From NCBI GenBank assembly GCA_964540355.1, contig CAZIMU010000002.1, positions 1-33,770 on the forward strand: a DNA stretch of 33,770 nucleotides, written 5' to 3'. Source of the DNA: an uncultured Fibrobacteraceae bacterium. GTDB lineage: Bacteria > Fibrobacterota > Fibrobacteria > Fibrobacterales > Fibrobacteraceae. Below the pieces are notes generated by a model that saw only the letters and a program-made list of their open reading frames with translations, did no database searches and was not told where the DNA came from. This document shows, in pieces, positions 11,725 to 29,209 of this stretch. Numbering within the stretch: position 1 is the stretch's first letter; each line of letters starts with the position of its first letter. The translations under genes and the position numbers were made by a program.

Positions 11725-11881
11725 CATTTACTTGCATAGTAATGTCTAGCGAAGGGCACCATTATTGGTTTTTTTTTCAAAAAAATGCACATTCTTGCAA
11801 ACAGTTGTTGGCAAAATAACGATTTCAGGATTTTTTTTCCCGTTTTTTACGTCTAATAGGTAACGAAGAAAAAAACGGAGG
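11725..11881 (+). repeat. Shared ~160-bp leader/promoter module, copy 1 (upstream of the Rpn-family gene)
   Basis: Hand alignment to the reverse complement of 29050-29209 gives roughly nine-tenths identity from CATTTACTTGCATAGTA through ...TAGGTAACGAAGAAAAAACGGAGG. The match includes the SD. Confidence 0.8.
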
Positions 11882-12696: not shown

Positions 12697-12720
12697 CGGG
12701 ATTTTACCCCCTTGCGGGGG
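12685..12720. repeat. 36-nt repeat with a CCCCC-N4-GGGGG hairpin, copy 1 (inverted partner at 28323-28358)
   Basis: GCAACTGCATAGCGGGATTTTACCCCCTTGCGGGGG matches the reverse complement of 28323-28358 at 35 of 36 positions. The single mismatch is in the loop. Confidence 0.9.
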
Positions 12721-12727
12721 CTTTTTA
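12707..12727 (+). terminator. Probable intrinsic terminator of the Rpn-family gene
   Basis: CCCCC TTGC GGGGG followed by CTTTTT. Confidence 0.55.
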
Positions 12728-12745: not shown

Positions 12746-15700
12746 CTAATAGCAATCGGATCGCATTTGTGGAGTTCCTGTTTTAGATGTAACAGACAGC
12801 CATGCACCATTCGTACCAGCAGGACAAGCATTGGATTCGCAAAGTGCTACTGTACTTGATGTACATGATATAGATTTGGAAGAGCCATTGCTACAATATA
12901 TGGTGCCACTCAAAGTACTAGCATTATTGGTATTATTGTAAATTTTAAGAGGAAGATTATTATTTGTAGTACACTGATTTGTCAAATTTAAGCAATCCCC
13001 TACGGAGGGATTAGTATTATTACCAAAAGTGCTTCCAGCACCACACGTTCCTCCTCCACCGCCAGAGCTAGATGAAGCCGCTACTATGGTAATATCCCCA
13101 CATGATACCTCACCGTTGACAACTTGGTTATCACACTTGACATTTGATACAGTTATGGTGCTTGTTCCCACTGAAGTATAATATGTTGTATATGTTTCTA
13201 ATGCGGCATTATTACCGCTGCTGTTTCTCCAGTTATTTGAGTTCATTGGAGAAATTCCAGTTATATTGAAATTCGCATTGGTTTTATCGCGGGTACCGTT
13301 GGAACAAGAGATAACTATTTGAATAGGCTCTTGAACTTGATATGTACGTGGGCTAAATGCGCAAGTTATTGATGGACCCGATGAGTTGCTACTCGGCGCA
13401 CTGCTAGAACTGCTTACGGTTGGGGTGCTTCCGCCGCCGCTACCGCAATTTATGGAACCGGATGTATAGGTAAAATTGCTTATCCATGAGCCAACATACA
13501 CATAATAACCACCATCTTTCTTAGCAGTTAAAAGGCTTGGGCAACTTGCATTTCCCGCAGATCCGGCAGCCCACGACTGACCACATGCAAATTCGGAATT
13601 ATTGTTAGGCGTGATCACCGTGCCATTTACCGTGAGGCTAGCACCCTGCATCTTAGAAATATCCCTTACAAAGAAACAATTTCCAGAGGTGGGGTTGCTT
13701 GGCGGAGCAGGAACGTTCTGAGCTTTAGTGTAGTCGCCATTGCACCAGCTGGCATTATACGCACACGCCGCCGCACTGCTCAGTGGCACGGCTGAGGAGG
13801 AACTGCTTGCCCGCGAACTGCTAGACACAGAATTGCTGCTTGGGCAAGTGGTGGCACCAGTGGTAAGAGAACCTTCGCAAAGCATTCCGCTTTTTTCGTT
13901 TGACATCCTACCAAGTATTATTGGATTTCCATCGCAATTAATTCTGAACATATAAACATAAGCATTAGTTCTAGCACTAATAGTTTGGGTAGTTGTTGGG
14001 GTAAAGCCAACCCAAGCGTTATTTGAAGATAGATTTCCACCATTGGCGGCGGTATATCTGAAACTGGAATCAATTGTAATGGTAGCTTCGCCGCCGTACC
14101 CGCAACCGTATTCTATGGCTGAGAATGGTATGGAAGTGCCCGTGAAACAAGTTTGGGCTACGCGGCACCAAGGAGCGTAATCGCAATTACTGAATGCATC
14201 AACAGAGCCACACTTTATTCCATTGAAATCGCCATCTGTGCCAAAAGTAAGACGCTCTCCATCGCAGCGAATATCATACATATAAATATCTCTCTCTGCG
14301 CCCTCGCTACCAAATTTATGAGGTTCAGGAGGACTGCGATTCCACTTGACATCGGTTGGTGAAATTCTTTTATATCCACCATTACTAGCAGCATTACCTT
14401 GCCAAGAGGTGTATTTGAATTTAGCAGCTGTGGCTTCGGAATTGCGATCGCCACCGCAGCCGTATTGCGGAACTGGTATGGCGTAATCGTAACAGCCACC
14501 GGAGACATAGCACCAAGGGGCGTAAGAGGCACTTGAAAGGGAATAACCTGAGTCAGAACTGCCACCGCCGCCACCGCCACTACTTGAACTCGCTTTGCTT
14601 GAACTGCTTTTGCTTGAACTGCTTATAACAGCGGATGAGCCTGGTGGTGGGTCGTCTGAGATAGCTCCAGAATGTATTTGCAAAAAGAATGGACTTATCT
14701 TGGTGTTGTTAAATACGCACTCGTAAATGCCGTCTTCTGGAGCAGCTGGGTTATAGCTTCCACAATTGTCTGGCGGCCCAAAAGTCGGCTTTGGTTCATT
14801 TGAGGGGTAATTCAAATATAGGAAGTTGTAATAGTCTTTTAAACTAGTAATGCTGGGTTTATCAGTTTTTTTGAAACGGAGAATTCGGGGCATAACTAAA
14901 ACAGAAGCTTCAATTTTATTCTCGCTGTTTTCCTTTTCTTTGCTGATGTATTTGCTTTCCAAGTCAACCCTTAAACGTGGGCTAAGTGGAACAAAGAAAT
15001 TATCATATATCGGAGGAATACTGCTCGGAGGTAGCTTGCAACCGGTTGAATCGGGGAATGCGCAATTTCTTCCACCTTCCTCGTACATACATAAAACTCC
15101 TTGTTCCATTAGCTCTTTAACAAATTCGGAGTTGCTCTCAGTTGTTAAAAATCCATTTCCTTGAGCGTTAACATGATTCATAACCGCACATTTATTCATA
15201 AAAATATTGCCGTGCAGTTTTCTACTGTCTGTTGCATCAAATTGATTTATATCTCCATCGCTGAAAATAAAATAATTGTAATCATCGCATTTATTGGATT
15301 TACTGCAAGATTTACCTTTTGGAGTACCGGCAAGCTCAATTCTGCCCGGGAAACCATTTGGCAAATAAAGCATAACCTCTACCCCTTTTGCGGTTGGGGG
15401 AAGATAGAGATAACATTGCTGCCCATTGAGGTTGCAAGCGGATAATTCATATATAATTATGTATTTGCCAGATGTTATGGTGCCTGGGTTAGGGTTTCCG
15501 CCCCACTTGCTTGCATACTGTTTTATATCTTGATTAGTACTCGCAGGCTCATCTTTTACATAGACTACCAACCATTCGTTCCACTTACGCTCTGCGGGTT
15601 TATTTTTTGTATCATTATAGCAATTTTGAAGGTCGCTGCCAATATCTCTTGGAGGGTAAGAGGGAAAGGCAAGCTCCATAAGTTTGGGGTTGCCTCCGCA

Positions 15701-17224
15701 GTAGCTCGATAACTCCCAGCCGCATCTAGCTGTGGTCTCGCAACTGCCGGGTTTATCTTTTCTATGTACCCAGTCACTCGGATTAGTTTTTTTAGCTTCG
15801 TCATAAATAGTGGTATCAAATTGTATGGGAGGATTTGCGCAACTTAGAGTGTCATCAGAAAGTTTATCTTTCAAGTGCTTCAATGTATCTGCGTACCAGT
15901 GGGATTTAGGAGTGCAAGATGCTTGAACATTTGTGGCTTTGGTACGAATTTGAATGTTGTTGTTATCTTTAAAGCAAGCCGCAGATGGGGCTGTGGAACA
16001 ATACGAGGGCGCACTAGAAGTAATTTTTGTCATATTCCCTGGTACGCAAACAGTATCGGTTGTTTTACTGCCAAGGAATGGAACGGGCTTTGATATTCCA
16101 TCACTAGGAATTGTGCCTGTCAAGGCATTTTTAATATACGCATTTCCATAAACCGCAAGAGAATCGGTGTTATTTTGGGCAGTTCTTGTAAGGGTAATGG
16201 TTCCAGCATCCATAACTAAATTTTTTGCAACACTAAAACCTAAACCACCTCCGCCACTATTTGTCCAATATTTAAAATTTCCCTGAATAGTGCTATTTCC
16301 GCCTATTGATACTACTCCGCCACTAGCTTGTCCAGCACAACCACCAGTTCCGCCAGTGGCACCGTTATTTATGCTCTCGTTGGGATTTACTCCGCCTTTC
16401 AAATAAGCGTCTCCAGTGATATTTATAGCACCTTTAGGATGAAATTCTTTTTCCACATATAAATTGCCTCTTATATTATCATTGCTTAGGGAGCCAGTTG
16501 AGCAAAAATCAAAATCGCCTGTGGAATATACATCTCCATAAACATCTATGCCATGATTTGCATAATAATTTCCATCTAAAACCAAATAACCAGGTTTTGC
16601 TGCACTTCCTATTTTAATCGAATTTAAAGCTTGACCACCTTTGTTTTTAATTGCCACGTCTTGGGTTACAACCGCTCTCGCTGATTCTATCTCGTTCACT
16701 GTTCCCATATTTCCCCAAAAGTCTTCATCGTAGTCTGGGCATAATGTTTTTTTTGTTTGAGACCCTTGAAAAGCCAGTTTGTATAAGCCATTCACGCTGT
16801 AAATTGCAGTTTGCTGTACTTTTGAGCCATCTCTGCCCACGCCAATGCTTTGGAATTTCAATTTGATTTTGCTTTTGTTAGACGTGTCTATGCCTGTTAG
16901 GTACACTCTATAGTATATGTTGTTAGGGTTGTTGTTTAAGTTTCCCAGCACATTATTGTTATTATTTGTTAGTTCATAAGCTTTTTTATTGTTTGCTGTT
17001 GAATAAAAATTCTTTACCACTGCGCCCACATCAGGTGCTTTGTAAGAAAGCCAAGCGTAAACGGCATCTAAGCCGGCTTCGCTCGCCTGATACGCCTCGC
17101 TCTGTTTTAAGCGGCTACCGCTTGCAAAGTTTTCAGAGCCAATCCATTTATACACAACCACACCTGCCGTGGTTGCCGCAAGCATAAACATCAAAACAGC
17201 GATTAAAGAAATACCGCGTTTCAT
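12746..17224 (-). CDS. Giant (1492 aa) PilX/GspK-N-terminal-like pseudopilin fusion; putative pilus-tip adhesin, left paralog
   Basis: N-terminus MKRGISLIAVLMFMLAATTAG (PilX_N-like hydrophobic helix without a G-F cleavage motif). ATGA overlap with the upstream PilW-like gene. Gly-rich repeat core, Ser/Gly linkers and Cys-bracketed C-terminal modules. The first ~850 aa are paralogous to 23060-28237. Confidence 0.8.
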   Translation of the reverse strand: MKRGISLIAVLMFMLAATTAGVVVYKWIGSENFASGSRLKQSEAYQASEAGLDAVYAWLSYKAPDVGAVVKNFYSTANNKKAYELTNNNNNVLGNLNNNPNNIYYRVYLTGIDTSNKSKIKLKFQSIGVGRDGSKVQQTAIYSVNGLYKLAFQGSQTKKTLCPDYDEDFWGNMGTVNEIESARAVVTQDVAIKNKGGQALNSIKIGSAAKPGYLVLDGNYYANHGIDVYGDVYSTGDFDFCSTGSLSNDNIRGNLYVEKEFHPKGAINITGDAYLKGGVNPNESINNGATGGTGGCAGQASGGVVSIGGNSTIQGNFKYWTNSGGGGLGFSVAKNLVMDAGTITLTRTAQNNTDSLAVYGNAYIKNALTGTIPSDGISKPVPFLGSKTTDTVCVPGNMTKITSSAPSYCSTAPSAACFKDNNNIQIRTKATNVQASCTPKSHWYADTLKHLKDKLSDDTLSCANPPIQFDTTIYDEAKKTNPSDWVHRKDKPGSCETTARCGWELSSYCGGNPKLMELAFPSYPPRDIGSDLQNCYNDTKNKPAERKWNEWLVVYVKDEPASTNQDIKQYASKWGGNPNPGTITSGKYIIIYELSACNLNGQQCYLYLPPTAKGVEVMLYLPNGFPGRIELAGTPKGKSCSKSNKCDDYNYFIFSDGDINQFDATDSRKLHGNIFMNKCAVMNHVNAQGNGFLTTESNSEFVKELMEQGVLCMYEEGGRNCAFPDSTGCKLPPSSIPPIYDNFFVPLSPRLRVDLESKYISKEKENSENKIEASVLVMPRILRFKKTDKPSITSLKDYYNFLYLNYPSNEPKPTFGPPDNCGSYNPAAPEDGIYECVFNNTKISPFFLQIHSGAISDDPPPGSSAVISSSSKSSSSKASSSSGGGGGGSSDSGYSLSSASYAPWCYVSGGCYDYAIPVPQYGCGGDRNSEATAAKFKYTSWQGNAASNGGYKRISPTDVKWNRSPPEPHKFGSEGAERDIYMYDIRCDGERLTFGTDGDFNGIKCGSVDAFSNCDYAPWCRVAQTCFTGTSIPFSAIEYGCGYGGEATITIDSSFRYTAANGGNLSSNNAWVGFTPTTTQTISARTNAYVYMFRINCDGNPIILGRMSNEKSGMLCEGSLTTGATTCPSSNSVSSSSRASSSSSAVPLSSAAACAYNASWCNGDYTKAQNVPAPPSNPTSGNCFFVRDISKMQGASLTVNGTVITPNNNSEFACGQSWAAGSAGNASCPSLLTAKKDGGYYVYVGSWISNFTYTSGSINCGSGGGSTPTVSSSSSAPSSNSSGPSITCAFSPRTYQVQEPIQIVISCSNGTRDKTNANFNITGISPMNSNNWRNSSGNNAALETYTTYYTSVGTSTITVSNVKCDNQVVNGEVSCGDITIVAASSSSGGGGGTCGAGSTFGNNTNPSVGDCLNLTNQCTTNNNLPLKIYNNTNNASTLSGTIYCSNGSSKSISCTSSTVALCESNACPAGTNGAWLSVTSKTGTPQMRSDCY

Positions 17225-18489
17225 AAACCCCCCGTTGCCGTTGCTTCTATTCCATTGTTAGGAGTTGGAATAACCATTTCAACACTGCCAACCTCTTTTT
17301 CTTTTCCTCTTTTAACTTTCAAATTGAGCTTAAATGCTTTCACATTTTTTTTATCTGCGGTCGGTGGTGTATAATTGGTATTTGTAAAGTTATAGGCTTT
17401 ATCATTTTTTTGCATTACTTTAAAATCTTCAATTTTTAAAGTACCATTGGATGCCTTGCTAGGATTGTAAAAAGAAAATTCAAATGCTATGCAGATATCT
17501 TGTGATGCGGGAACAGAAAATTCCATATAGTGATTTTCCGCATCGCTATCGCTTGTTTGCGGGGGCCAAAACATGAATCTTTTGAATACACTGTCTAAGT
17601 CTGTATATTTTGCGAGCCCTACTGCAATATGATCTTTTCCTGGCTGGAAAAAAGCCATATCATCAGGAACACCGTTATTTTTACTAATAGGCGTTCTGAA
17701 TTGAATTGCATAAACTGTGTCTTTTTTAAAATTGAATTTATGGCAAGCATTAGGACTTGTATTTGAGGCTCCAACTAGAATTTGGTTTAGATTTTTTTGA
17801 CCAGCACTATTATTTACAAAACCACTTATTTTGTTATCTGAGCTTATACCAGGAGAACTAAGTTGCTTAACTTGATTTTGGTTTCCACGGTCTATTAGTT
17901 TGAATGTTGACTCTCCAGCTTTTGGAAATAAAATATTTGGGATTACTGGTGTGCTTTCCAGCAAGGTGAATTTCTCCACTCCGGTAGCCATTGCAAGCGA
18001 ATCGGGACATTCGTCTTTGCTAATACTAGCAGATTTGGGGCATTTTGTATCGTCAAGTTGTTCGCATCTGCGCCAAAGACTGCTGTCTGGTTTTACTTCC
18101 CAAGTTATTTTCAACACTGCGCTGCAAGTTCCATCGTCCTTGTAATGTATCTTGTGGAATATAAGCTTGTGAAAATTAGCATTGCTTTTATCCAAATTGT
18201 AAGAGCTTGAATCAGGTTGGGGGGTTGCGGTTAAATTGTAGTAAACTTTTTCGGCTATCAAAAAATTATCGGTGGTATTATTGACTTTCCAGCTTTTGGC
18301 ACCCAACTGAGAAATATCTTCTTTTAGGATTGCTGCCACTTTATTGACTTCCTCTGTTGCTTTTGTCATATTTTGGGTTCTAACCCTCATGCTGGTGGAA
18401 TCGCTAAAAGCACGGCCTGCAACGATTATTATAAAACTCATTATCGCCATATACACAAGAAGCTCTATAAGTGTAAATGCTTTTTTCAT
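17221..18489 (-). CDS. PilW/GspJ-like minor (pseudo)pilin, left paralog
   Basis: MKKAFTLIELLVYMAIMSFIIIVAG is a prepilin N-terminal cleavage/methylation motif. ATGA overlaps at both ends. Confidence 0.85.
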   Translation of the reverse strand: MKKAFTLIELLVYMAIMSFIIIVAGRAFSDSTSMRVRTQNMTKATEEVNKVAAILKEDISQLGAKSWKVNNTTDNFLIAEKVYYNLTATPQPDSSSYNLDKSNANFHKLIFHKIHYKDDGTCSAVLKITWEVKPDSSLWRRCEQLDDTKCPKSASISKDECPDSLAMATGVEKFTLLESTPVIPNILFPKAGESTFKLIDRGNQNQVKQLSSPGISSDNKISGFVNNSAGQKNLNQILVGASNTSPNACHKFNFKKDTVYAIQFRTPISKNNGVPDDMAFFQPGKDHIAVGLAKYTDLDSVFKRFMFWPPQTSDSDAENHYMEFSVPASQDICIAFEFSFYNPSKASNGTLKIEDFKVMQKNDKAYNFTNTNYTPPTADKKNVKAFKLNLKVKRGKEKEVGSVEMVIPTPNNGIEATATGGL

Positions 18490-18917
18490 TTTATAATCCT
18501 CTCTTCTTTTATTTCCAGATTATTGTTTTTAAATGGCCATCTAACAGTCAAATTAACTCTTTTCGCCGATACATTCAAAGTGTCAACACCGGAATATCTT
18601 GCGTAATCGCTGCTCTCTATGGAGTTTATATTTTCTACGTCCCATGTTATGGTGTAAGTCCTTTTGTCTATTATTTTTCCGCCATTGCCTTCCCATTCTT
18701 TATCTACGGTTGCTGGACCTCCTGTTTTTATAGACTCAATTCCCAATCTGCTCAGGCTGTCCATAAAATTCTGCGCAATAATTTGAGCCGCATCTCTTGT
18801 GCGAATTCTTATAACCGCCTCTCTATTTCCTTTTTGCAAAAGATTCAGCCCAACAAGAAGAAATCCCAGCACAACAGCTGAGATCATAACTTCAAGAAGA
18901 CCAAATCCCTTTTTCAC
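18486..18917 (-). CDS. PilV/GspI-like minor (pseudo)pilin, left paralog
   Basis: A GTG start at 18917 gives MKKGFGLLEVMISAVVLGFLL with a short prepilin leader. GTGA overlap with the upstream stop and GGGAGG upstream. The ORF-track TTG start at 18929 is less likely. Confidence 0.8.
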   Translation of the reverse strand: MKKGFGLLEVMISAVVLGFLLVGLNLLQKGNREAVIRIRTRDAAQIIAQNFMDSLSRLGIESIKTGGPATVDKEWEGNGGKIIDKRTYTITWDVENINSIESSDYARYSGVDTLNVSAKRVNLTVRWPFKNNNLEIKEERIIK

Positions 18918-19435
18918 AAAACCTCCCAATTTGTATTTTTTGGTTTTTTTATATACGCTTTGAATGAATTTTCATTTTTTTGCTTTGCCGTGCCGCCGCA
19001 ATAATCTTTGAAGCAAGCGGCAAAATAACCTTCTTTGGTTATACCAGATACACCTATGCGAATTTCAGAAGTAGTGCCATCGTTAAAACAAGCATTGGTA
19101 TTGAAACCATCAACGGGCGAAGCGCATGAGGCAAAAAAACCTTGGCTAAGGATTTCACTGGATATTGTTTTGTATGTAGTTCCAGTCACATTAGTGTCGG
19201 CTATTATTTCTTTGTCAACTATGCGTATTCTCACTGGCTTGTTCATTCGCTTTGCATCCATTGAGGCTCTTTCTGTGAATGTTCTTATTGTTTGCGCGGT
19301 TTCCTTTGCACGGTTTATGAATATGAGTTCTGTTAGGCTAGAATAGGCAAGGGTGGAGAGTATGCCTATAATTATGACAACTACCATCACTTCCAGCAAG
19401 GTAAACCCGCTGCTACAAATCCCTCCATTTTTCAA
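18914..19435 (-). CDS. FimT/FimU/GspH-like minor (pseudo)pilin, left paralog
   Basis: ...GGICSSG|FTLLEVMVVVIIIGIL carries the prepilin motif, with GspH-like NRAKETAQTIRTF..A downstream. The only available start is TTG at 19435, with no SD. It abuts the palindrome after the recombinase stop. Confidence 0.75.
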   Translation of the reverse strand: MKNGGICSSGFTLLEVMVVVIIIGILSTLAYSSLTELIFINRAKETAQTIRTFTERASMDAKRMNKPVRIRIVDKEIIADTNVTGTTYKTISSEILSQGFFASCASPVDGFNTNACFNDGTTSEIRIGVSGITKEGYFAACFKDYCGGTAKQKNENSFKAYIKKPKNTNWEVL

Positions 19436-19454
19436 AACTGCCGCGCTGGCAGTT
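19436..19454. repeat. Perfect 7-5-7 palindrome AACTGCC-GCGCT-GGCAGTT; candidate recombinase core site (left) and/or terminator hairpin
   Basis: Read directly from the sequence. It overlaps the recombinase stop codon and abuts the TTG of the FimT-like gene. 19436-19450 is a 15/15 inverted match to 20554-20568. Confidence 0.6.
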
Positions 19455-20421
19455 ATCTAAAGTAATTTTCGTTCAAGAATTTCACCCATTCTTTGTGAAC
19501 TTTTACCATCCCTTCAAAACCCGCGTCACTCTCGCTAAATACGAAGTCCGCATAGTGTTTCAAGGTGATGTTTATGTTCTTGTGACCAAGCATTTTTGAA
19601 ACTCTCACAATATCAAAACCAGCACTCAAAGCTTGGCTTGCGAAGGTGTGCCTGAACCTGTGGCAATGTATGTTTTTTATGCCTGTTTGAAAGGAGCATT
19701 TTTTTAGCAGCTTTTGGCTTCTGAGATTGAACTTGCGACCGCTGTTTTCCTCAAAAATATGCGCTCGCTTGTAAATTTCAAACATGGTGCTGCTAATGGG
19801 TATTTTCCTCGCCCTGTGCTGCGTTTTTGCGTCTATAACCCCTGAAATTTTTTGAGGAAACACAAAAAGCATTTTCTCCTTGATATTCCACCATTCCTTG
19901 GTCATAAGGGTGGCAGCTTTGCTCTCTATGCCAGTCAAGAGCATAAGCAGAATCATATCGTGAAAATGGGGGTATCTTTTTAGCCATTTTAAGAGGATTT
20001 TGCACTCTTCAATGGAAAAAGGAGTCACGAGCCTTGTATTCTCGCTGGTTTCCGATACGTTTATGCTTTCAAAGGCAAAATTCGGTGCCTGCCCAAGGAA
20101 TCTCTCTGCAAACTTTATGATTGACCTTATCCTCAAAAGTTCCTTGTTTATGGTTGAGGCAGATTTTTTGCCCCTCCATTCCGCATAGCTCCTGGCCTTT
20201 TCCCTAGTTAAATCGCCATAATAGACTATTTTTTGGCTGGAAAACCACGTTTTTATGGTGTAAACTTGCCTTTCAACCTGAGTTTTCCAACTTTTTTTAG
20301 CTTTGGCTGTTTCAGCGAAATCCGCTAGGTAATTTTCCAGTATTTCGCCCCACTTTCTACGCTTTTCCCTTAGGTTTGTAATGCTCAAGAGAAAATCACC
20401 CAAAATTAACTTTTTTTCCAA
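19453..20421 (-). CDS. Tyrosine-type site-specific recombinase/integrase
   Basis: C-terminal HCHRFRHTFAS (HxxR box) and LGHKNINITLKHY (His plus catalytic Tyr). TTG start preceded by AGGAGG. The box I arginine is not evident (LLTGIESKAA). Confidence 0.8.
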   Translation of the reverse strand: MEKKLILGDFLLSITNLREKRRKWGEILENYLADFAETAKAKKSWKTQVERQVYTIKTWFSSQKIVYYGDLTREKARSYAEWRGKKSASTINKELLRIRSIIKFAERFLGQAPNFAFESINVSETSENTRLVTPFSIEECKILLKWLKRYPHFHDMILLMLLTGIESKAATLMTKEWWNIKEKMLFVFPQKISGVIDAKTQHRARKIPISSTMFEIYKRAHIFEENSGRKFNLRSQKLLKKCSFQTGIKNIHCHRFRHTFASQALSAGFDIVRVSKMLGHKNINITLKHYADFVFSESDAGFEGMVKVHKEWVKFLNENYFR

Positions 20422-20508
20422 AAAAGCCCTCCTGATTTGAATTTTTGTCCAGAAAATAATATATATTTATATATGAAGGACATTTTGATTTTTGCGTGTG
20501 GAGTAAAC
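20422..20508. promoter_or_regulatory. AT-rich divergent control region between the recombinase and the right FimT-like gene
   Basis: 87 bp containing AATAATATATATTTATATAT, the SD for the recombinase (minus strand) and a GGAG SD 5 nt before ATG 20509. No experimental support is available. Confidence 0.4.
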
Positions 20509-21102
20509 ATGAAATTTGCCATTTACAGAACCTCTGAGCGGGCTTTGAAAAAAGCCAGCGCGGCAGTTATACAAAATGGTCGGATTTATACTGGGTTTAC
20601 TCTGTTAGAAGTAATGGTGGTGGTATTAATCATAGGTATTCTTGCAACACTTGCTTACTCAAGTTTAATTGAATTAATTTCCACCAACCGCGCAAAAGAA
20701 GTGGCGCAAACAATAAGAACGTTCTCGGAAAGAGCTTTGATGGATGCAAAGCGGCAACACATGGTTGTTAGAATATGTATAAAAGACAATGAGATAAGAT
20801 CCGAAAACCCTACGGAACCTAACGCGACCGTTAATTGCGGCGAAGGAAAAATAATTTCTAGCGAAGCTTTTAGCAATAGTTATAGGGCAGAAAAAAATCC
20901 TCCAGTGTCCGATAAAAAAGATTTCGAAAACCTTGTTACAACCGAAGTTCGCATAGGTCTATCTGGAATAGCTAAGGAAGGTTATTTTGCCGCCTGCGAT
21001 CCTAGAGGCTATTGCGGTGGTGCGGTGAAAGCGAATGATGATAATTCATTAAGAGCATACATAAAAAGAGGGAAAAATTCAACAACGTGGGAGGCTTTGT
21101 GA
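20509..21102 (+). CDS. FimT/FimU/GspH-like minor (pseudo)pilin, right paralog
   Basis: ATG with a GGAG SD and a 29-aa leader MKFAIYRTSERALKKASAAVIQNGRIYTG|FTLLEVMVVVLIIGIL. Paralogous to 18914-19435. The ORF-track start at 20437 was rejected. Confidence 0.8.
   Translation: MKFAIYRTSERALKKASAAVIQNGRIYTGFTLLEVMVVVLIIGILATLAYSSLIELISTNRAKEVAQTIRTFSERALMDAKRQHMVVRICIKDNEIRSENPTEPNATVNCGEGKIISSEAFSNSYRAEKNPPVSDKKDFENLVTTEVRIGLSGIAKEGYFAACDPRGYCGGAVKANDDNSLRAYIKRGKNSTTWEAL
20550..20568. repeat. Candidate recombinase core site (right): AAAAGCC-AGCGC-GGCAGTT
   Basis: The 15-mer GCCAGCGCGGCAGTT (20554-20568) is the exact reverse complement of 19436-19450 and occupies the same reading frame (A S A A V) in both FimT-like genes. 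The left arm matches the ideal palindrome at 5 of 7 positions. Confidence 0.55.
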
Positions 21103-21584
21103 AAAAAGGTTTCGGTCTCCTTGAAGTTTTGGTAGCCGCGATTGTGCTTGGGTTTTTAGTTATGGCGTTAAATAGGTTGCAACTAGGAAACAGAGAAGCA
21201 ATTTTACGCATAAGGACACGCGATGCCGCCAATATCATTGCACAACACGTTTTAGATTCGCTCGGAGCATTGGGCGTAAATGCACTTCCGAATGAGGAAA
21301 AAATAATAGACGACAACCCAGACGATCCCGAAGGAGGTCGTAAATATGCTTTTGGGGGAAAAGACGATAAAAGTGAAATGAAATATTACGTAACTGTAGA
21401 ATACAAGCCTTTAAGCAATCCCGACAATCCCGATAATTTCATAGATGCAAACACACATGAAAATGAAGGTACCAATTTAGTTTCAGCGAGTTCCCAATAT
21501 TTTGCTAGAAACATTCAAGCAACCGTTAAGTGGAAATTTAAAGACACATACCAATCCATAAAAATGTCAAAGGTGGTGAGGTGA
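21099..21584 (+). CDS. PilV/GspI-like minor (pseudo)pilin, right paralog
   Basis: GTG 21099 gives MKKGFGLLEVLVAAIVLGFLV. GTGA overlap with the upstream stop, the same arrangement as the left paralog. Confidence 0.8.
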   Translation: MKKGFGLLEVLVAAIVLGFLVMALNRLQLGNREAILRIRTRDAANIIAQHVLDSLGALGVNALPNEEKIIDDNPDDPEGGRKYAFGGKDDKSEMKYYVTVEYKPLSNPDNPDNFIDANTHENEGTNLVSASSQYFARNIQATVKWKFKDTYQSIKMSKVVR

Positions 21585-23050
21585 GTATGGGGAAGCATAG
21601 CAAATCAGGTTTCACCCTAATAGAACTCGTAGTCTATATAGCTATAATGAGCTTCATAATAGTTGTGGCGGGGCGGGTTTTTAGCGATTCAACCTCTATG
21701 CGTGTACGTAGCCAAAATTTGCTCAAAAGTAGCTCAGAAATTGGCAAACTATCGAATTTGCTAACCGAAGACATTTCACAAATGGGTGTTAAGGCTTGGG
21801 GATCAATTACCACCTGTGAGACTAAAGACAACTACGACAATTGTTACAGAGTCATTTCGCATAACAAGGTATATATGAACGCTGACAACATTGTAAGCAA
21901 TTTAAGAGATTCCTCGTCTTATATACTTGTAAGGAGGAAAATAAATGACCGTTTTGCTGATAGCCTTGTTTTTAGAAAAGCCGTGTTTGATAAAGACGGT
22001 AAATTTATAGCCGTTCACGAGATAGCTTTGTACACCAGCAGAAACGGAGATAGAGACAGCCTTTTCCGCAAATGCCGAGAAGTGGACAGAATTTGCCCAC
22101 AAGAAGCCCCTGAACCTTCTAAATTTTGCCTAACTAACACAACGCAATATAACGATTGTCCTTCCAAAAGCAACATAAACGATGCTCCGAAGGTCTTGAT
22201 GGCAACCGATATTACAAACTTCAAGCTCACCCCTTCTACAACAGGGCAAGAGGTGCCACTTTTCGATGACCAATTTGGCCTATATTCTCCGCTGCCATCT
22301 GGTGATCTGAAACGACCAGGAAAATGCGAAAACAATAACACCGAAACGAAAGTGTCTGAGTTCATATCAAATTATGCTGGCGATAATAATCCACCATCAG
22401 GAAATGCAAAACACGAGCTTTATCTCAGTGATAAGCTCTCGCAAAATTGCGAGACTTGGACGAATTTAGACTGCAAGGAGATGACTTTCGGTGGACAAAA
22501 AACCTACGTAGTTGAGTTCAAAATGCCCTTCAATAATGACGAAAGTACTCAATTCCAACCCAGTAGAGACCATCTATCCATAGGACTTAGAAACAAACAG
22601 GGAACCAAAGTTGATGGTGCGCCCGCAGATGTTCTCTTCTATCCGCCACAAGACATTGCCTCTAGAGATATGGTAAGGCATATTGAGTTTCCTATAAAAA
22701 AAAAGAAAGAGGAATCTATAAAAGCTTGTGTTGCAATAACTATGGCTTTCTATTCCCCAACGGCAAGCAATGGAGAACTTACGTTTGAAGGTTTTAAAGT
22801 GTTCCGCAAAACAGACGAAAGTTTTGATTTTCCAGAATCAGATGTGGCAAGCTTTGGTATATGCGAACCTACAGGTAATTGCACCACTGAGCAAAAAATA
22901 AAAGAGAGAAGAAGTGTGAAAGCCTTTGAGCTTATGGTGGAGATGGCTATAGGCAAAGAGGAAAGAAAATCTGGAACATTCTCACAAAAGGGAAGAGGAA
23001 TTATAGTAGCAACCCCTAACAATGGCGTGAGCGTTACAGTAGAAGAGTAA
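21581..23050 (+). CDS. PilW/GspJ-like minor (pseudo)pilin, right paralog
   Basis: ...HSKSG|FTLIELVVYIAIMSFIIVVAG carries the prepilin motif. The start is GTG 21581 (GTGA overlap) or ATG 21587. Confidence 0.85.
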   Translation: MSMGKHSKSGFTLIELVVYIAIMSFIIVVAGRVFSDSTSMRVRSQNLLKSSSEIGKLSNLLTEDISQMGVKAWGSITTCETKDNYDNCYRVISHNKVYMNADNIVSNLRDSSSYILVRRKINDRFADSLVFRKAVFDKDGKFIAVHEIALYTSRNGDRDSLFRKCREVDRICPQEAPEPSKFCLTNTTQYNDCPSKSNINDAPKVLMATDITNFKLTPSTTGQEVPLFDDQFGLYSPLPSGDLKRPGKCENNNTETKVSEFISNYAGDNNPPSGNAKHELYLSDKLSQNCETWTNLDCKEMTFGGQKTYVVEFKMPFNNDESTQFQPSRDHLSIGLRNKQGTKVDGAPADVLFYPPQDIASRDMVRHIEFPIKKKKEESIKACVAITMAFYSPTASNGELTFEGFKVFRKTDESFDFPESDVASFGICEPTGNCTTEQKIKERRSVKAFELMVEMAIGKEERKSGTFSQKGRGIIVATPNNGVSVTVEE

Positions 23051-23059
23051 GGAGGTTTT

Positions 23060-26000
23060 ATGAAACGCGGTATATCCCTAATAGCTGTTTTGATGTTCAT
23101 GCTTGCCGCTACCACGGCGAGCATAGTCATTTTCCGTATGCTCAGTTCGGAAAATTTCTCCAGCGGAGCGAGGCTCAAAGCAAGCGAGGCTTACAAAGCA
23201 AGTGAAAGCGGCATAGATGCGGTGCATAGCTGGCTGGCAAACCGCGGTGTAGAAGCGGCTGAATTGGTTACTCAATATATGAATCAATCAACTAGATACC
23301 CTTTGAAGATAAACTACGGTGACCCTAATGTTTTTGAAGCTTATGTTATTGGAGCGGATGCTTCGGGTGGAAATGGCAAACCCGTGAGATTGAAAATTCT
23401 TGTGGAAGGCAAGGGAAGAGATAAATCTGTAGTTAGCCAAACAGCAATACTAAAAGTGAGCGGATTGTATAGAACATCAATAAACCCTATAGGCGACATT
23501 CCTGAATCGGATCCGGACGATGTAGATGATCCGCCGCCGCAGGATAATTGTACGCCAACACCTAACCCAGAACCGCCAGTATGCCAGGCAGATCCAATCA
23601 AACCACCATCAACTGGGAAATGCGCTCTCCCTGATTTATGGGGTAATATGGCAACGGTGGGTAGAATAGACGCTAGGACAATGATTATAACCCAAACAAC
23701 TGACGAGTGCAACGGTGGCGGCCAGGGTCTCAATTCCATTAAAATAGGCAAACCTGATTCAGCTGGTTATTTGATACTAGACGGAAATTTTTACGCAAAT
23801 AATGGTATAAATATTTATGGAGATTTGTACGCAAATGGAGCATTTTTTATGTGCGCAAGCGGTAGTGATTGGATAAAAAAAGACAGAAACGGCAAAGGTG
23901 GCAATTTATATGCTAAAGAGTTTCATCCCATGGTTTCCTTTGGTACTCTACTCATTGAAGGCTCGGCATATTTTGCGGATAGTGTGAATCCCAATGTTTT
24001 GCCTAAAAGAGTTTGCAATCCGGCTGGCGGAAATGCACAGCTTGGCTGCCTAGGTGCTTTAGGCGGAGCTGTAAATATTAAAGGCAATACCACTATTAGG
24101 GGACCATATTTTGCTTATACAGGTAACATTTTTTATCAAAACGACTGGCAAAATTGGGGTGGCAATTTGAATTTTAATATGGAAGGTAACTTGGTTATGG
24201 ATAATGTTTCTCATATGAGTTTAAATTATGAAGATAAGGACAATACTTCCTCCAGCAAATTTGAAGTAAAGCAAAATGCGTATGTTAAACAATTTACTAC
24301 CAATCAAAGTCAGAATAAAAATAATGATTCTAAATCTGGGCTTTGGCCTACATTTAATAATTTGTGTTTGGGCGTTGATTATGATGGAACTAAACCGAAT
24401 TATTCCCAAAAGGGTTCAAATCCAAAATTTAATTTTAAAGCAAATGGTACAATAGGGAAGTGCAATGCTAATGCGAGCTGGGGTGCAGATGAGTTGAAAA
24501 ACTTAAAAGAGGAGCTAGAGCTTTCAGGAAACATGACACAGAGCTGCCAGAGACCTCCAGTAAAATTTGATATGAAGATTTATAATGAGGCAAAAAAAAC
24601 TACTCCTGCGAAATGGGTACATAGGGATAACCAGCCTGGGGGATGCGCCTCTGGTTCTGGGCAAATGAATCTATCAAAGGAATGGTCACCTTTATTGACC
24701 GAACTTAATACGTGCTGGAAGAGCAAGAAGTCAGACGAAATTTACAAGAATGACCCAAGCGACAAAAATGAATGGATTGTTATTTATATAAAAGATAATT
24801 ATAATTTTCAAAGAGTTAATGGAAATCTGGGCGATGGCAAATATATTATAATATTTGATTTTGAAAAAAAAATTCCGTTTGACCCTGCTAACCCATACGG
24901 TATCCAATATTTATATCTCCCGCCAACTGGTAAAAATGCAATCGTTATGCTTTATTTTCCCAAAGGTTTTAATGGTAGAATTGAACTAGATGGAAATGAA
25001 AGTGGAAAAATAGCACAGCAATCGGAGTATAACTATTTTATTTTTAGCGATGCAGATATAAGGGAATTTAACACGACAGCAGATAGATTTTTACACGGAA
25101 ATGTTTTTATGAACAACTGCGCAAAGATAAATTTGCCAAGTTCTGCAACCAACCCATATTTTTACTCCAGAGGCAACGATGCCTTTGTGGACCAACTGAT
25201 GGAGTCTAACATTTTATCTGCCACCGAACACTGCCGTAACTTCACCAGCGATAACAATAACACCAATATAACATACACGCTCGAATGTACTTCTCCTCCA
25301 GAAAAAGGCTTTGTGGGCGAGGCAATAAAACCGCCAACAGTTACCTGTAAAGGTTCCAACGGCATATCCAAAACTTGCGGTTTTGATTGGGTGAATGCAC
25401 CGAGTTGGAGTTGTCCTCAGGAAGGTACATATAATGTAGGAGTAAAGGCAAATGCAAACTCAGGAAACTGTCAAAATAGTTCACCTGTTCAGTGCGGTAA
25501 AAATATTACCTTAACAATATCCAAACCGCAGAACACCACTCTCACTTGCAAGGGATTGCCTAAAAAAGGCAAGGTAGGTGAAGAAATAAGGAAGCCAAAA
25601 GTTAGATGCGGCGGCCAAACGATTGAAAGCGGTTTCTCTTTTATGGGGATGGAGGAGCCAAATTGGAAAAATCCTGTGGAGGGTTCATACACTGTAAGTG
25701 TAAAGGCAACCTCTGGAACTTGTAGTCCTAAGATCGAAGAATGCGGTACATTAACAGTGACAAAAGACGAGCCTATAGACAATAAAAATGAACCTTGGAT
25801 ACCAATATCCAGCCGCCTTGCGGTAAAGTTGGAAAGCAAGGAAATAAGCAAACAAAGAATAGACGATAGAGGTCATGATGATAATAAACTTGCTAAGTCA
25901 ATACTTGTAATGCCTCGCGTGGTGCGCATATTGGAATCGGACCCTGTTATCTCACGTAAATATATCCGCAATCGTTATTCATATATGTATATGAATGGAG

Positions 26001-28237
26001 CAAAAAATGCAGACACAGCAGCAGCAGAGCAGCTGGAATGTGTAAGTACCGCTAACGGTAAAAATTTGTTTACCGAGGAGCTTCAAAAAGATGTTTATGT
26101 ATGCAGCTTCAGAACTCCCAAAGTAAAACATTCGTCTTTCTACGTGGCTATAGGGGCAGACGCATGTAAAGACTGCGGTTCTAGCGGTGTAGCAGAATGT
26201 ATCCTTACTCCAACAAAAGATAATAAGAATATATATACCCACGGCAGGAATATATCGCCAAGCATTAAGTGCAATGACAAATCCACACCCACCAATACTG
26301 TTTTTGAGGCTGTATTCGGACCTCCGCTTACCAAAGACCTGAGCGGAAACTACTACTATTCCGGTCCCGAAGCATACGACAATGCAATAATATCGGCTTC
26401 TGGAAAGTGCGGCTCAAAAGATTTTGAGGGACTATGCTACTCCTTAGTTAACAGCGAGCGTGATTACACCATTGAAGTAAATAGACCTACTTGTACTATG
26501 GAGCGTGGACCGCATGAATCTAAATGCCCCCAAGCCAACCCGTACGACTGCAAAGTTGAGACCGCATGCGGCGGTACAGCAGAGAAATGTTGTTGTACTA
26601 ATATTTCGCCGGTATATGCTCCAACACACGATTGCGGAACTGCAACCAAAGATGGTCCGCCACGTTACCCGAAATTCAATTATTCCCCTGAAAATGATAT
26701 AGGACTAACTGGAAATATAGATAACATTAAATGGAATGAGGACCCGCCAAAACCTCATAATTTTAATACTATTGGCTTGAATAGAGTGACTCGTATGTAC
26801 CAAGTTTGGTGCGGCGGTCATGAGTTAAATTATGGTACAAAGAACGGCAAAGATGGAGTAAATTGTGGTTCTTTTGATGTTATTAAAGAAGGTACTAGCG
26901 GCAACTACAAGCCAAATCTTGCTGCTTGCGAAAGCAAGGTTTCTTCTTGCTCTATCAATGCTTGTCAAAAGAGAGGCGTTGGCATACCGCCTCCAACATT
27001 CACTTGCAAAGATGGTTCTCCTAACTATGTAAAATTCAGATATAGCGATGTCAGCAAACCTGGGCAATTATCAACAACCATTCCCGAGAAATGGAATAAT
27101 GGCGAATATCAATCATTCACATCCGATGGAAAGAGAGACGTTTTTATACAAGAAATTAAGTGCGGTGATGAACTCCTTAAGTGTAGCTCCGGTAGCGTTA
27201 CCGATCTAGGGCTTCCGTGTGGTTTTGTTGATATAAAAAACGATTGTGCTTCTAGTGTTACTGCCACTTGTAAGTTGGTGACTAAAAGTGGTACTGAGGT
27301 AAGCGACTTAGCTGTGACGCAAGGCGAAAACATTAAAGCGCCAAAAATAACCTGCTCCGATGGTTCAACCCCAAGCTGGCCGACTTTCGGCTCAACGGGT
27401 TCGGGTTTGCCTAGTGGTGCTGCCAGCAACTGGCCGGATAATGGAAATGCTTATTACACAGCTGCACATGATACTGGTTCCTATACAATTTCTGTATCTA
27501 GCGTTAATTGCGGTGCAACCACTGTAAGCAACATAACTTGCGGAACCATTAACGTGCAAAGGCCAATCTGTTCCATCAGCGGTACTTACACTTACGTTAA
27601 TTCTAGTACTCCAAACGTACCAGCTCCAACATACAGTTGCGGAAACGCTACCAAAACAACTGGCACTAACGTAAACGAGTTCAAATATACAGATGCTAAT
27701 GGCGCAACTGTCTCAGGAACAGCCACTACCAATTGGAACAATAATCCTCCATCAAACATGATGATTACAGCAAGAGCCAACGCTGATGTTTATATGTACA
27801 AAGTAACTTGTGACGATAATACCTTAACTTATGGCACAAGCAATACTTCAAAAGATGGAATAAAATGTGCTGGTTCTTTTAGCGTAGTAAGCAGCAGCAC
27901 CAGTGGAAGCGGCAGTTCTAGTGCGAGCGGTGGAGGAACTAATATTACGCTTTCTACTTCGGAAACCACTTTAAATTATGGCACAACTTATACAGTTACT
28001 TGCAGTGATACAAATAAGGATATTGTTTGTAAAAATGCCTGTAGTAATATGCAGGTTTGCTACAAATACAATGGAGGATCTGAAAACTGCGTAAATGGAA
28101 ATAGTACTATATTTAGTATTATCAATGGAAAATTGAATGACCAGTTTAATCAAAAATGTGCAAATAATGCCACAATCCAGATTATGAGTACCCCAGCTTG
28201 TAGTATAACGTGTAAAAACAATAATACTTATTATTAG
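23060..28237 (+). CDS. Giant (1725 aa) PilX/GspK-N-terminal-like pseudopilin fusion; putative pilus-tip adhesin, right paralog
   Basis: AGGAGG SD. N-terminus MKRGISLIAVLMFMLAATTAS is identical over 20 aa to the left paralog. The core is conserved (YLILDGNFYAN, PPVKFDMKIYNEAKK, YNYFIFSDADI, ILVMPRVVR) and the Cys-rich C-terminal modules differ. Confidence 0.8.
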   Translation: MKRGISLIAVLMFMLAATTASIVIFRMLSSENFSSGARLKASEAYKASESGIDAVHSWLANRGVEAAELVTQYMNQSTRYPLKINYGDPNVFEAYVIGADASGGNGKPVRLKILVEGKGRDKSVVSQTAILKVSGLYRTSINPIGDIPESDPDDVDDPPPQDNCTPTPNPEPPVCQADPIKPPSTGKCALPDLWGNMATVGRIDARTMIITQTTDECNGGGQGLNSIKIGKPDSAGYLILDGNFYANNGINIYGDLYANGAFFMCASGSDWIKKDRNGKGGNLYAKEFHPMVSFGTLLIEGSAYFADSVNPNVLPKRVCNPAGGNAQLGCLGALGGAVNIKGNTTIRGPYFAYTGNIFYQNDWQNWGGNLNFNMEGNLVMDNVSHMSLNYEDKDNTSSSKFEVKQNAYVKQFTTNQSQNKNNDSKSGLWPTFNNLCLGVDYDGTKPNYSQKGSNPKFNFKANGTIGKCNANASWGADELKNLKEELELSGNMTQSCQRPPVKFDMKIYNEAKKTTPAKWVHRDNQPGGCASGSGQMNLSKEWSPLLTELNTCWKSKKSDEIYKNDPSDKNEWIVIYIKDNYNFQRVNGNLGDGKYIIIFDFEKKIPFDPANPYGIQYLYLPPTGKNAIVMLYFPKGFNGRIELDGNESGKIAQQSEYNYFIFSDADIREFNTTADRFLHGNVFMNNCAKINLPSSATNPYFYSRGNDAFVDQLMESNILSATEHCRNFTSDNNNTNITYTLECTSPPEKGFVGEAIKPPTVTCKGSNGISKTCGFDWVNAPSWSCPQEGTYNVGVKANANSGNCQNSSPVQCGKNITLTISKPQNTTLTCKGLPKKGKVGEEIRKPKVRCGGQTIESGFSFMGMEEPNWKNPVEGSYTVSVKATSGTCSPKIEECGTLTVTKDEPIDNKNEPWIPISSRLAVKLESKEISKQRIDDRGHDDNKLAKSILVMPRVVRILESDPVISRKYIRNRYSYMYMNGAKNADTAAAEQLECVSTANGKNLFTEELQKDVYVCSFRTPKVKHSSFYVAIGADACKDCGSSGVAECILTPTKDNKNIYTHGRNISPSIKCNDKSTPTNTVFEAVFGPPLTKDLSGNYYYSGPEAYDNAIISASGKCGSKDFEGLCYSLVNSERDYTIEVNRPTCTMERGPHESKCPQANPYDCKVETACGGTAEKCCCTNISPVYAPTHDCGTATKDGPPRYPKFNYSPENDIGLTGNIDNIKWNEDPPKPHNFNTIGLNRVTRMYQVWCGGHELNYGTKNGKDGVNCGSFDVIKEGTSGNYKPNLAACESKVSSCSINACQKRGVGIPPPTFTCKDGSPNYVKFRYSDVSKPGQLSTTIPEKWNNGEYQSFTSDGKRDVFIQEIKCGDELLKCSSGSVTDLGLPCGFVDIKNDCASSVTATCKLVTKSGTEVSDLAVTQGENIKAPKITCSDGSTPSWPTFGSTGSGLPSGAASNWPDNGNAYYTAAHDTGSYTISVSSVNCGATTVSNITCGTINVQRPICSISGTYTYVNSSTPNVPAPTYSCGNATKTTGTNVNEFKYTDANGATVSGTATTNWNNNPPSNMMITARANADVYMYKVTCDDNTLTYGTSNTSKDGIKCAGSFSVVSSSTSGSGSSSASGGGTNITLSTSETTLNYGTTYTVTCSDTNKDIVCKNACSNMQVCYKYNGGSENCVNGNSTIFSIINGKLNDQFNQKCANNATIQIMSTPACSITCKNNNTYY

Positions 28238-28294: not shown

Positions 28295-28336
28295 TGCAAA
28301 TAAATGTGAAATTGGGGCAACGCCCCCGCGAGGGGG
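28295..28336 (+). repeat. 42-bp direct repeat flanking the RAYT cassette, copy 1
   Basis: TGCAAATAAATGTGAAATTGGGGCAACGCCCCCGCGAGGGGG matches 29198-29239 at 36 of 42 positions by hand alignment. Confidence 0.65.
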
Positions 28337-28358
28337 TAAAATCCCGCTATGCAGTTGC
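28323..28358. repeat. 36-nt hairpin repeat, copy 2 (inverted partner of 12685-12720)
   Basis: Lies 5 nt downstream of the RAYT stop on the minus strand. Contains CCCCC GCGA GGGGG. Confidence 0.9.
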
Positions 28359-29044: not shown

Positions 29045-29049
29045 ATCTA

Positions 29050-29209
29050 CCTCCGTTTTTTCTTCGTTACCTATTAGACGTAAAAAACGCGGAAAAAAAT
29101 TCAGAAATCGTAATTTTGTCAACAACTGTTTGCAAGAATGTGCATTTTTTTGAAAAAAAACCAATAATGATGCCCTTCGCTAGCCATTTGCATACTATGC
29201 AAGTAAATG
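29050..29209 (-). repeat. Shared ~160-bp leader/promoter module, copy 2 (upstream of the RAYT gene)
   Basis: Its reverse complement aligns with 11725-11881 up to and including the SD. Confidence 0.8.

Follow-up and report, generated by a model that had tools for sequence, protein, structure and literature searches.

A 33,770-nucleotide (nt) stretch of DNA from an uncultured member of the Fibrobacteraceae (GenBank assembly GCA_964540355.1, contig CAZIMU010000002.1; hereafter the window, with position 1 as its first letter) carries two four-gene operons that encode pilin-like and giant proteins and are arranged as mirror images of each other between positions 12746 and 28237, together with a tyrosine recombinase gene that fills the gap between these two arms. 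The mirror-image pair and its shared gene order had been recognized in an initial annotation made from the sequence letters, and the open reading frames (ORFs) lie exactly where it had placed them. Although the operons are real, several of the family assignments made at that time are weak, and the central regulatory element was overlooked; neither the recombinase gene nor the inverted core sequences at its flanks, the homology of the first pilins that reaches into these cores, and a 40-nt inverted repeat outside the genes of the giants had been noticed.

Each arm encodes, in this order, a FimT/GspH-like, a PilV/GspI-like, and a PilW/GspJ-like minor pilin, followed by the giant protein. The left arm, on the minus strand, comprises the FimT/GspH-like gene (18914–19435; 173 amino acids [aa]), with a G↓F cleavage site and a frame that stays open to and through the adjacent core (to 19450), the PilV/GspI-like gene (18486–18929; 147 aa), the PilW/GspJ-like gene (17221–18489; 422 aa), and the gene of the giant (12746–17224; 1492 aa). 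Its counterpart on the plus strand comprises the FimT/GspH-like gene (20509–21102; 197 aa from the ATG, with the mechanical ORF call starting at 20437), which has a 29-aa leader ending in G↓FTLLEV and places this arm in the promoter-joined position, the PilV/GspI-like gene (21087–21584; 165 aa), the PilW/GspJ-like gene (21581–23050; 489 aa), and the gene of the second giant (23060–28237; 1725 aa). In BLASTP comparisons, the first pilins of the two arms are 55% identical (E 1e-56), the PilV/GspI-like proteins 38% (E 1e-35), the PilW/GspJ-like proteins 33% (E 1e-61), and the giants 37% across their first ~720 aa (E 3e-122). The giants share the same first 20 residues, whose codons match at 52 of 60 nt, with all eight differences synonymous. 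The synonymous-only divergence reported in the initial annotation and the long maintenance of both copies deduced from it are thus borne out; the arms are anciently diverged, intact paralogous operons (33–55% protein identity), and both arms are intact in all loci compared.

The segment between the arms is bounded by two identical 15-nt cores in inverted orientation (GCCAGCGCGGCAGTT; GCC-AGCGC-GGCAGTT), a sequence present in two copies in the window versus 0.05 expected by chance. The left site (19436–19454, minus strand) lies directly after the stop codon of the recombinase gene and forms the palindrome AACTGCC-AGCGC-GGCAGTT (7-5-7), with the core at 19436–19450; in the right site (core at 20554–20568, plus strand), the inner half-site is degenerate (AAAAGCC). 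The 1103 nt that are enclosed by the cores (19451–20553) contain the recombinase gene (19453–20421, minus strand; 322 aa, TTG start; PF00589, E 6e-13, 49.4 bits versus a cut-off of 27.1), a putative promoter region, and the beginning of a leader. A conserved promoter-like block (20437–20465, plus strand; TTGAAT, 17 nt, TATATA) faces the leader, whose start codon and first 15 codons (MKFAIYRTSERALKK; 20509–20553, plus strand) are preceded by a GGAG ribosome-binding site (20500–20503).

Both cores encode ASAAV in frame with their first pilins. On the right, the leader runs from MKFAIYRTSERALKK through ASAAV into IQNGRIYTG↓FTLLEV; on the left, the frame from the core reads ASAAV-LKNGGICSSG↓FTLLEV, and the sequence upstream of it contains a stop codon as well as the 3' end of the recombinase gene. 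The homology between the first pilins passes the apparent TTG start of the left gene and ends at the core (ASAAVLKNGG versus ASAAVIQNGR). The left first pilin lacks promoter, ATG, and leader; before its cleavage site there is just a TTG at position 19435 without a Shine-Dalgarno sequence. When the segment 19451–20553 is inverted in silico, the left pilin becomes an uninterrupted ORF with a full leader (MKFAIYRTSERALKKASAAVLKNGGICSSGFTLLEV...), and the right pilin is stripped of any start codon before G↓F. At the sequence level, inversion thus alters the coding sequence, because the ATG and 15 leader codons move in frame from one arm to the other. The junctions of the present state read ...TTTAGATAACTGCCAGCGCGGCAGTTTTGAAAAATGG... 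and ...GCTTTGAAAAAAGCCAGCGCGGCAGTTATACAAAATGG..., and those predicted for the flipped state ...GCTTTGAAAAAAGCCAGCGCGGCAGTTTTGAAAAATGGAGGG... and ...TTTAGATAACTGCCAGCGCGGCAGTTATACAAAATGGTCGG....

The locus is probably a site-specific inversion toggle between alternative pilus-tip/adhesin operons. The recombinase would invert the 1.1-kb cassette by a crossover in the core, and the arm that faces the leader end would gain promoter, start codon, and complete leader (MKFAIYRTSERALKK-ASAAV-...G↓FTLLEV) and be expressed. In the present state of the window, the right arm would be switched on, and the left arm, which borders on the 3' terminus of the recombinase gene, has no promoter of its own and no proper start for its first gene. 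The three minor (pseudo)pilins and the giant of each arm would act together in priming and capping a type IV filament whose machinery is presumably encoded elsewhere, so that a flip would exchange the whole tip complex together with its adhesin modules. The arms had originally been regarded as independent accessory tip cassettes; that view is not upheld, and they are better read as two outputs of one invertible expression cassette. Presumably, the enclosed recombinase itself catalyzes the flip, and flipping may be frequent within populations.

The same design is present in about 20 loci of Fibromonadales, the uncultured termite-gut order of Fibrobacterota in which the source names of homologs place the host of the window. 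With the recombinase as a hub, 22 further loci were retrieved from metagenome-assembled genomes (MAGs) of Fibromonadales and from termite-gut metagenomes, and additional loci were reached via homologs of the pilins and the giants (loci of relatives are labelled L0xx). Every locus with enough flanking sequence (14 of the 22) shares one plan, namely a minus-strand arm, followed by leader, promoter, and integrase, a site, and a plus-strand arm. Each locus has exactly two inverted sites, except L012, which has three. The sites at the 3' end of the recombinase gene are homologous in all 21 loci, and the recombinases are 74–95% identical across the family, whereas identity of the arms drops to 30–80%. 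The order of the arm genes also varies, with the FimT- (T), PilV- (V), and PilW-like (W) genes arranged either as T-V-W-giant or as W-T-V-giant. A sequence element located between the recombinase start and the leader (TTGAnTTTTTGyCCnnAAAATnATATATATTTAT) is conserved in all lineages of a 14-locus alignment, and at other loci, the homologous leader is fused to a different first gene.

The cores themselves occur in six variants, with the spacers AGCGC, GGCGC (plus GGCAG, or AGCAG in L019), GCTCC, GCCCC, and GCGCC. In every locus, the 5-nt spacer matches between the paired sites, and a one-base mismatch of the half-sites is found in four loci (L005, L021, L022, and L026). A matching spacer would be expected if matching overlap regions are needed for strand exchange. 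In 20 of 21 loci, the reading frame of the first pilin in the promoter-less arm runs uninterrupted, in register with the core, as far as G↓F-T-L-I/L-E, across linkers of 13–52 codons, and all simulated hybrid first pilins are full-length ORFs.

These features bear on another explanation, namely that the arms are static divergent operons served by a shared divergent promoter, with the recombinase gene opening the left operon or representing the remnant of an integrated element, and that there is no programmed inversion. Such an arrangement would agree with the recombinase gene being co-directional with the left arm and located 18 nt upstream of its first pilin, with the in-frame TTG of that pilin, with the absence of the canonical Arg-I (the first catalytic arginine) from the recombinase, and with the failure to find the two orientations within one strain. 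It leaves unexplained, however, why inverted cores should lie in frame inside both leaders, why core variants should match between paired sites, why the frames of 20 of 21 unjoined arms should remain open through their linkers, and why first pilins should lack any possible start codon before G↓F. It also does not account for orthologous arms that occur in either attachment state, with the breakpoints located at the cores, and we regard it as decidedly unlikely.

Both orientations of the cassette are represented among related genomes. In pairwise alignments of three genome pairs, the arms are collinear, the cassette is reversed, and the breakpoints coincide with the cores. Positions 5–2902 of L019 correspond to window positions 16556–19450 (84%), and the sequence from 4009 onward corresponds to the window from 20554 onward; L023 is collinear with the window over both whole arms (as far as 13389 in the left and 25216 in the right arm), with the cassette reversed. 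In both cases, the breakpoints are at window positions 19450 and 20554. The third pair, L024 and L005, agrees in the relative orientation of the pheA/ribBA flank (91%), of arm A (4.2 kb), and of arm B (3 kb), but not of the cassette (91%), which is flipped. When arms are grouped by collinear similarity, at least five groups of orthologous arms (L, R, A, B, and E) have members both on the leader side and on the integrase-3' side. In group L, the arms of the window, L008, and L015 are located on the recombinase-3' side and those of L016, L017, L019, and L023 on the leader side; L016 encodes MRFAIYRTSERALKKAGAAVLKNGGIYSGFTLIEV, which is the hybrid predicted for the left arm of the window. Genomes differ in which arms are paired (L with R, L with A, A with B). 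Since inversion of a whole module leaves the attachment of its arms unchanged, differences in attachment require recombination at the sites.

The inversions might also have arisen by general (RecA-type) recombination between the 5' ends of the operons, as in the sap system of Campylobacter fetus, with the recombinase being irrelevant or serving, for example, mobility. There are inverted homologies between the arms (212 nt with 72% and 68 nt with 87% identity), the module is found in different genomic contexts (L007 versus the window), the entire module is flipped relative to the PheA gene in L008, and the active site of the recombinase is non-canonical. Yet the breakpoints in L019 and L023 and between L024 and L005/L029 fall at each locus' own 13–15-nt cores, which are too short for RecA, and the flanking homology amounts to just ~72%. 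Moreover, a perfect extended palindrome of the kind typical of core-type sites is present at the recombinase end, conservation of the recombinase greatly exceeds that of any other part of the module, and there are no direct repeats or att-like duplications beside the module. Flipping by general recombination is therefore unlikely. Contig breaks near the 3' end of the recombinase gene in L006, L008, L028, and L029 were considered as signs of population heterogeneity but rejected as uninformative, because highly conserved recombinase genes of co-existing strains explain them equally well.

The recombinase that would carry out the site-specific inversion belongs to a family that has been encountered only in Fibromonadales. 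Its matches include Tn1549 Int, IntI4, HP1, and XerC-like structures, and the catalytic residues H254-x-x-R257, H280, and Y290 and the region around K199 are invariant across the family. An exact-sequence look-up of the window recombinase returned no record. The family includes a clade of 420-aa paralogs with an additional N-terminal domain of ~95 aa, which adjoin island-like cargo (helix-turn-helix proteins, toxin-antitoxin systems, GmrSD). These paralogs were considered as similar toggles, which was rejected because their neighborhood is ordinary island-like cargo.

Several observations weigh against a programmed inversion switch. In the recombinase, the canonical Arg-I is replaced by Glu166 (TGIESKA versus TGLRISE of Tn1549 Int). 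Glu166 and Lys168 are invariant (TG-x-E-x-K-A) in 14 members of the family, including the 420-aa paralogs; the motif shared with these paralogs may therefore be compatible with activity. A strict sigma-70/terminator scan of the window center yielded nothing beyond chance and did not flag the promoter-like block, so that its putative promoter function is deduced from conservation. The unjoined arm might be expressed to some extent, through the in-frame TTG of the left first pilin (leader MKNGGICSS) and read-through out of the recombinase gene; the OFF state may therefore mean low rather than zero expression. L028, the sole exception to the open frames, carries an insertion between site and arm, and the assignment of the arm proteins to H/I/J/K-type families remains under the curated thresholds. 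When 11 simulated hybrid first pilins (from the window and ten other loci) were looked up by exact sequence in a collection of 15 billion proteins, none was found, and the truncated call that is expected for a switched-off right pilin was likewise absent from that collection. Lastly, the closest arms in opposite states are ~84% identical, and both orientations have been seen between related genomes, not within one strain; the flips could be evolutionary rather than programmed.

Some of the related loci differ from the window in the details of the cassette. L005 (6186–6449), L017, and L021, and in shorter form L015 and L022, have an extra ORF of 87 aa between promoter and leader ATG, which encodes a predicted transmembrane segment and coiled-coil-like repeats but has no Pfam match. 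It is absent from the cassette of the window and would be co-transcribed with whichever arm the leader joins. The insertion in L028 (300–730; ~450 nt) encodes a small helical protein and has G-rich inverted repeats (GGGAGTGGGGAGT...) on both sides. In L012 (Candidatus Fibrimonas termitidis GUT221; 18766–20878), a third core is in frame with a third promoter-less arm of the W-T-V type; it is located 8 kb from the cassette, after genes of SpoU and Smr, and the linker behind this core is almost the same as the one in the leader-joined arm. This arrangement suggests a three-way, shufflon-like system, and the third in-frame site implies that the system can be more than binary.

Among the arm proteins, six of eight carry the prepilin N-terminal methylation motif (G↓F-x-x-x-E plus a hydrophobic helix). 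Five of these six small proteins score 23–31 bits with the N_methyl profile PF07963 (cut-off 21.2), with E-values of 5e-5 for the left PilV/GspI-like and 2.7e-5 for the left PilW/GspJ-like protein, and the sixth scores 20.9 bits. Five are also above the cut-off of TIGR02532, and the 489-aa protein reaches 16.1 versus 16.3 bits. The scores with the GspH/FimT profile TIGR01708 (34–36 bits versus a curated cut-off of 80), the PilV/GspI profiles TIGR02523/TIGR01707 (23–27 versus 52), and the GspJ/PilW profile TIGR01711 (17–19 versus 65) are all sub-threshold, and these alignments are limited to the N-terminal helix (the first ~50–70 residues). The profile searches that had been proposed as a check therefore place all six small proteins by their N_methyl/pilin signature, but none of the arm proteins in GspH, PilV, GspJ, or PilX_N. 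The N-terminal pilin signature is the sole secure assignment of the arm proteins. The tip set of type H-I-J-K or FimU-V-W-X that had been proposed fits by gene order and relative sizes, but not by profile scores, and should be read as a resemblance only.

The giants have no match among Pfam or NCBIfam families. The PilX N-terminal fusion claimed earlier is not supported, as PilX_N (PF14341), GspK, and similar Pfam profiles are undetected at the N-termini even at E ≤ 10, and the modelled N-terminal module matches no pilin in the PDB. In a Foldseek search of the PDB with the model of this 165-aa module (mean predicted local distance difference test score [pLDDT] of 80), the best matches were VirB8-like chains (E 0.03). 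The N-terminal sequence MKRG↓ISLIAVLMF is nearly invariant and lacks Glu5, as is also the case in GspK/PilX-type proteins. Motif and predicted topology (a helix, two helices, and three strands) are compatible with a GspK-type pseudopilin.

The left giant, a putative tip adhesin, appears to combine this GspK/PilX-style N-terminus with a region resembling a beta-helix, an alpha/beta domain, and C-terminal modules rich in Cys. An AlphaFold (AF2) model of its first 730 aa (pLDDT 76) has an N-terminal long helix plus two helices and three strands, followed by the beta-helix-like region (~170–440) and the alpha/beta domain. The best Foldseek match of the model, PDB entry 4wa0 (E 1.7e-3, probability 0.99, TM-score of 0.40 on the target, 9% identity), is suggestive but weak; when the alignment of the N-terminal region was searched as a profile against the PDB, only a weak match to a beta-helix acetyltransferase emerged (E 0.06). 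The C-terminal halves of the giants (window positions 12746–14900 and 25200–28237) consist of repeated Cys-rich modules of ~100 aa with Ser/Gly-rich linkers between them. The giants contain 52 and 66 Cys residues, and their Cys-rich modules differ between left and right in number and kind. In a set of 1.84 billion representative proteins, one such module has only 23 relatives, almost all of which are parts of very long proteins; the description of the fourth member as an expanded protein with variable Cys-rich modules is accurate, and the modules are lineage-specific. The homologs of the giants are all hypothetical proteins of Fibromonadales, often with two on one contig. Location at the tip and function as adhesin are plausible for the arm proteins, and the presence of pilB/C/D in Fibromonadaceae genomes is consistent with a role in a pilus (PMC4704652).

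Outside the arms, the remaining genes of the window have housekeeping functions (DapA, HisS, QueF, MetX/W, UppP, PheA, and RibBA), which confirms the claim that the pilus machinery is absent from this stretch. Scans for tRNAs and Rfam families across the whole window found nothing, and hence no tRNA-linked integration site. A 40-nt inverted repeat (95%) is located outside the left giant gene (12685–12724), where it consists of a terminator-like hairpin (CCCCCTTGCGGGGG) plus 22 nt, and again, with the same terminator hairpin, outside the right giant gene (28319–28358). In L008, the hairpin is likewise found after the ortholog of the giant gene. The 40-nt repeat was considered as an additional recombinase site but rejected, because no other locus has it and it represents a terminator common to both arms. 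Another set of outer inverted repeats (105 nt with 94% plus 44 nt with 91% identity; 11741–11874 and 29056–29188) brackets a YhgA-like gene, the module, and a RAYT gene.

The YhgA/Rpn-like gene (11890–12696, plus strand; a weak match to Transposase_31) converges on the left giant gene, with its stop codon inside the 40-nt repeat, and has a homolog in the same relative position in L010. The RAYT/IS200-like ORF (Y1_Tnp; 28364–29164, minus strand) has Pfam matches at aa 197–258 only, and its interior contains a perfect 26-nt inverted pair (28584–28609 and 28842–28867) that resembles repetitive extragenic palindromic (REP) sequences of the GTAG type; the gene may be REP-invaded or decaying. Neither L008 nor L010 has this gene at the orthologous position. 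In L008, which represents an 87% identical strain, the left-type arm lies directly beside pheA, and the position of the whole module or its arms thus differs between lineages.

The outer inverted repeats (40 nt at 12685–12724/28319–28358 and 105 nt at 11770–11874/29056–29160) and the transposase-like genes beside the module (YhgA-like and RAYT) could be taken to indicate a mobile composite element with the pilins as cargo, or a recent artefact of assembly or duplication. This is highly improbable, because the locus has been independently assembled in four other data sets with 99.8–100% identity, the 33–55% identity of the arms makes any duplication ancient, and orthologous loci (L005, L008, and L010) lack both the outer repeats and the transposase-like genes.

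As in known programmed inversions, the proposed site-specific toggle at this locus has inverted sites that bound a segment, a recombinase gene inside, and both orientations among related genomes. The G segment of phage Mu, the C segment of P1 (Gin/Cin), and Hin of Salmonella are inversion switches of tail fibres or flagella operated by serine recombinases. The proposed switch resembles them in that inversion selects between alternative gene sets (the mirror-image S-U and S'-U' in Mu), in that the crossover within a coding region fuses a constant 5' part in frame to alternative 3' parts (as in Mu G), and in that the recombinase gene and a promoter are located inside the invertible segment (as in Hin). 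It differs in its tyrosine recombinase and in having a pilus tip set rather than a tail fibre or flagellin as output, and, whereas the variable genes of Mu are inside the invertible segment, the operons of 7–8 kb are fixed here and a small cassette moves.

Among inversion systems that involve type IV pili, the shufflon of R64 (Rci, PilV, type IVb thin pilus) is similar in that an adjacent tyrosine recombinase alters the tip adhesin by in-frame inversion, and a survey of gene-altering programmed inversions found annotations as "pilin" and shufflon PilV enriched among the targets (PMC9881135). However, the R64 shufflon swaps C-terminal segments of a single pilV gene among several sfx sites, whereas the window has two sites (three in L012) and would keep the 5' leader constant and exchange entire four-gene operons. 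The locus is not an Rci/sfx shufflon, and profile and homology searches found no detectable relationship between its recombinase and Rci. In Moraxella bovis and M. lacunata, Piv, a DEDD-type (IS110-like) recombinase, inverts type IV pilin genes (tfpQ/tfpI) with the junction inside the pilin coding region, yielding two alternative pilins. Unlike the switch proposed here, it exchanges C-terminal parts of the major pilin, not operons of minor pilins and adhesin.

The vsa (HvsR) and vpma (Xer1; PMC2268961) loci of Mycoplasma and the mba/UU172 locus of Ureaplasma (PMC3047005) likewise use inversion by a tyrosine recombinase to join one promoter or 5' site to silent genes of surface proteins, such that oppositely oriented neighbors are expressed alternately. 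Their targets are single lipoprotein genes of wall-less pathogens, in contrast to the multi-gene pilus-tip operons of a free-living or symbiotic diderm with the recombinase inside the flipping piece. In the composition of the arms, the closest parallels are the type IVa minor-pilin/PilY1 sets and GspH-I-J-K of the type II secretion system (T2SS), which have four pilin-like proteins per operon and a large K/X-type or non-pilin protein proposed as cap. A genome can also have more than one alternative set of type IVa minor pilins and PilY1, as exemplified by the multiple clusters of Myxococcus xanthus (PMC7541494). The fourth protein of the present arms differs from these by its combination of a pilin-like N-terminus with ~1400–1700 aa of beta-helix and Cys-rich modules, and membership of the arm proteins in the respective families is below curated thresholds. 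The alternative tip sets described to date are, to our knowledge, selected at the level of transcription rather than by inversion of DNA. The match of the giant to 4wa0 recalls the tapirins of Caldicellulosiruptor, cellulose-binding proteins whose genes lie beside those of type IV pili, which share the weak beta-helix similarity, a fibre-degrading host, and the pilus context; beta-helices, however, readily match each other.

Compared with these switches, the locus has four distinguishing features, namely a minimal mobile cassette that unites recombinase, promoter, ATG, and leader, a predicted crossover within a prepilin signal peptide, complete four-gene tip operons of 7–8 kb as the switched units, and a recombinase that was found only in Fibromonadales and has a non-canonical Arg-I position. 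Literature searches found no description of this switch. It is somewhat better than an even bet that a lineage-specific recombinase, shortened relative to its 420-aa paralogs and lacking Arg-I, has become part of a portable cassette that toggles pilus-tip/adhesin operons (three in L012) by an in-frame crossover inside a prepilin signal peptide, with the long leaders serving as hosts of the recombination site; this would give fibre-degrading Fibrobacterota of termite guts switchable specificities of attachment or phage receptors.

If the proposed switch exists, a DNA flip would select between whole tip complexes with adhesin-like proteins of 1500–1700 aa. Such a switch would raise the questions of whether a signal peptide can house a recombination site and whether a tyrosine recombinase can use Glu-x-Lys in place of Arg-I, and the compact cassette (1.1 kb with two 15-nt cores) would make an attractive natural two-output genetic toggle. 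Type IV pili are suspected to be involved in the attachment of members of this phylum to cellulose (PMC4704652). The hosts of the cassette are an uncultured group attached to wood fibre in termite guts, and inversion of the cassette would raise the question of whether these bacteria bet-hedge the specificity of their attachment or their phage receptors.

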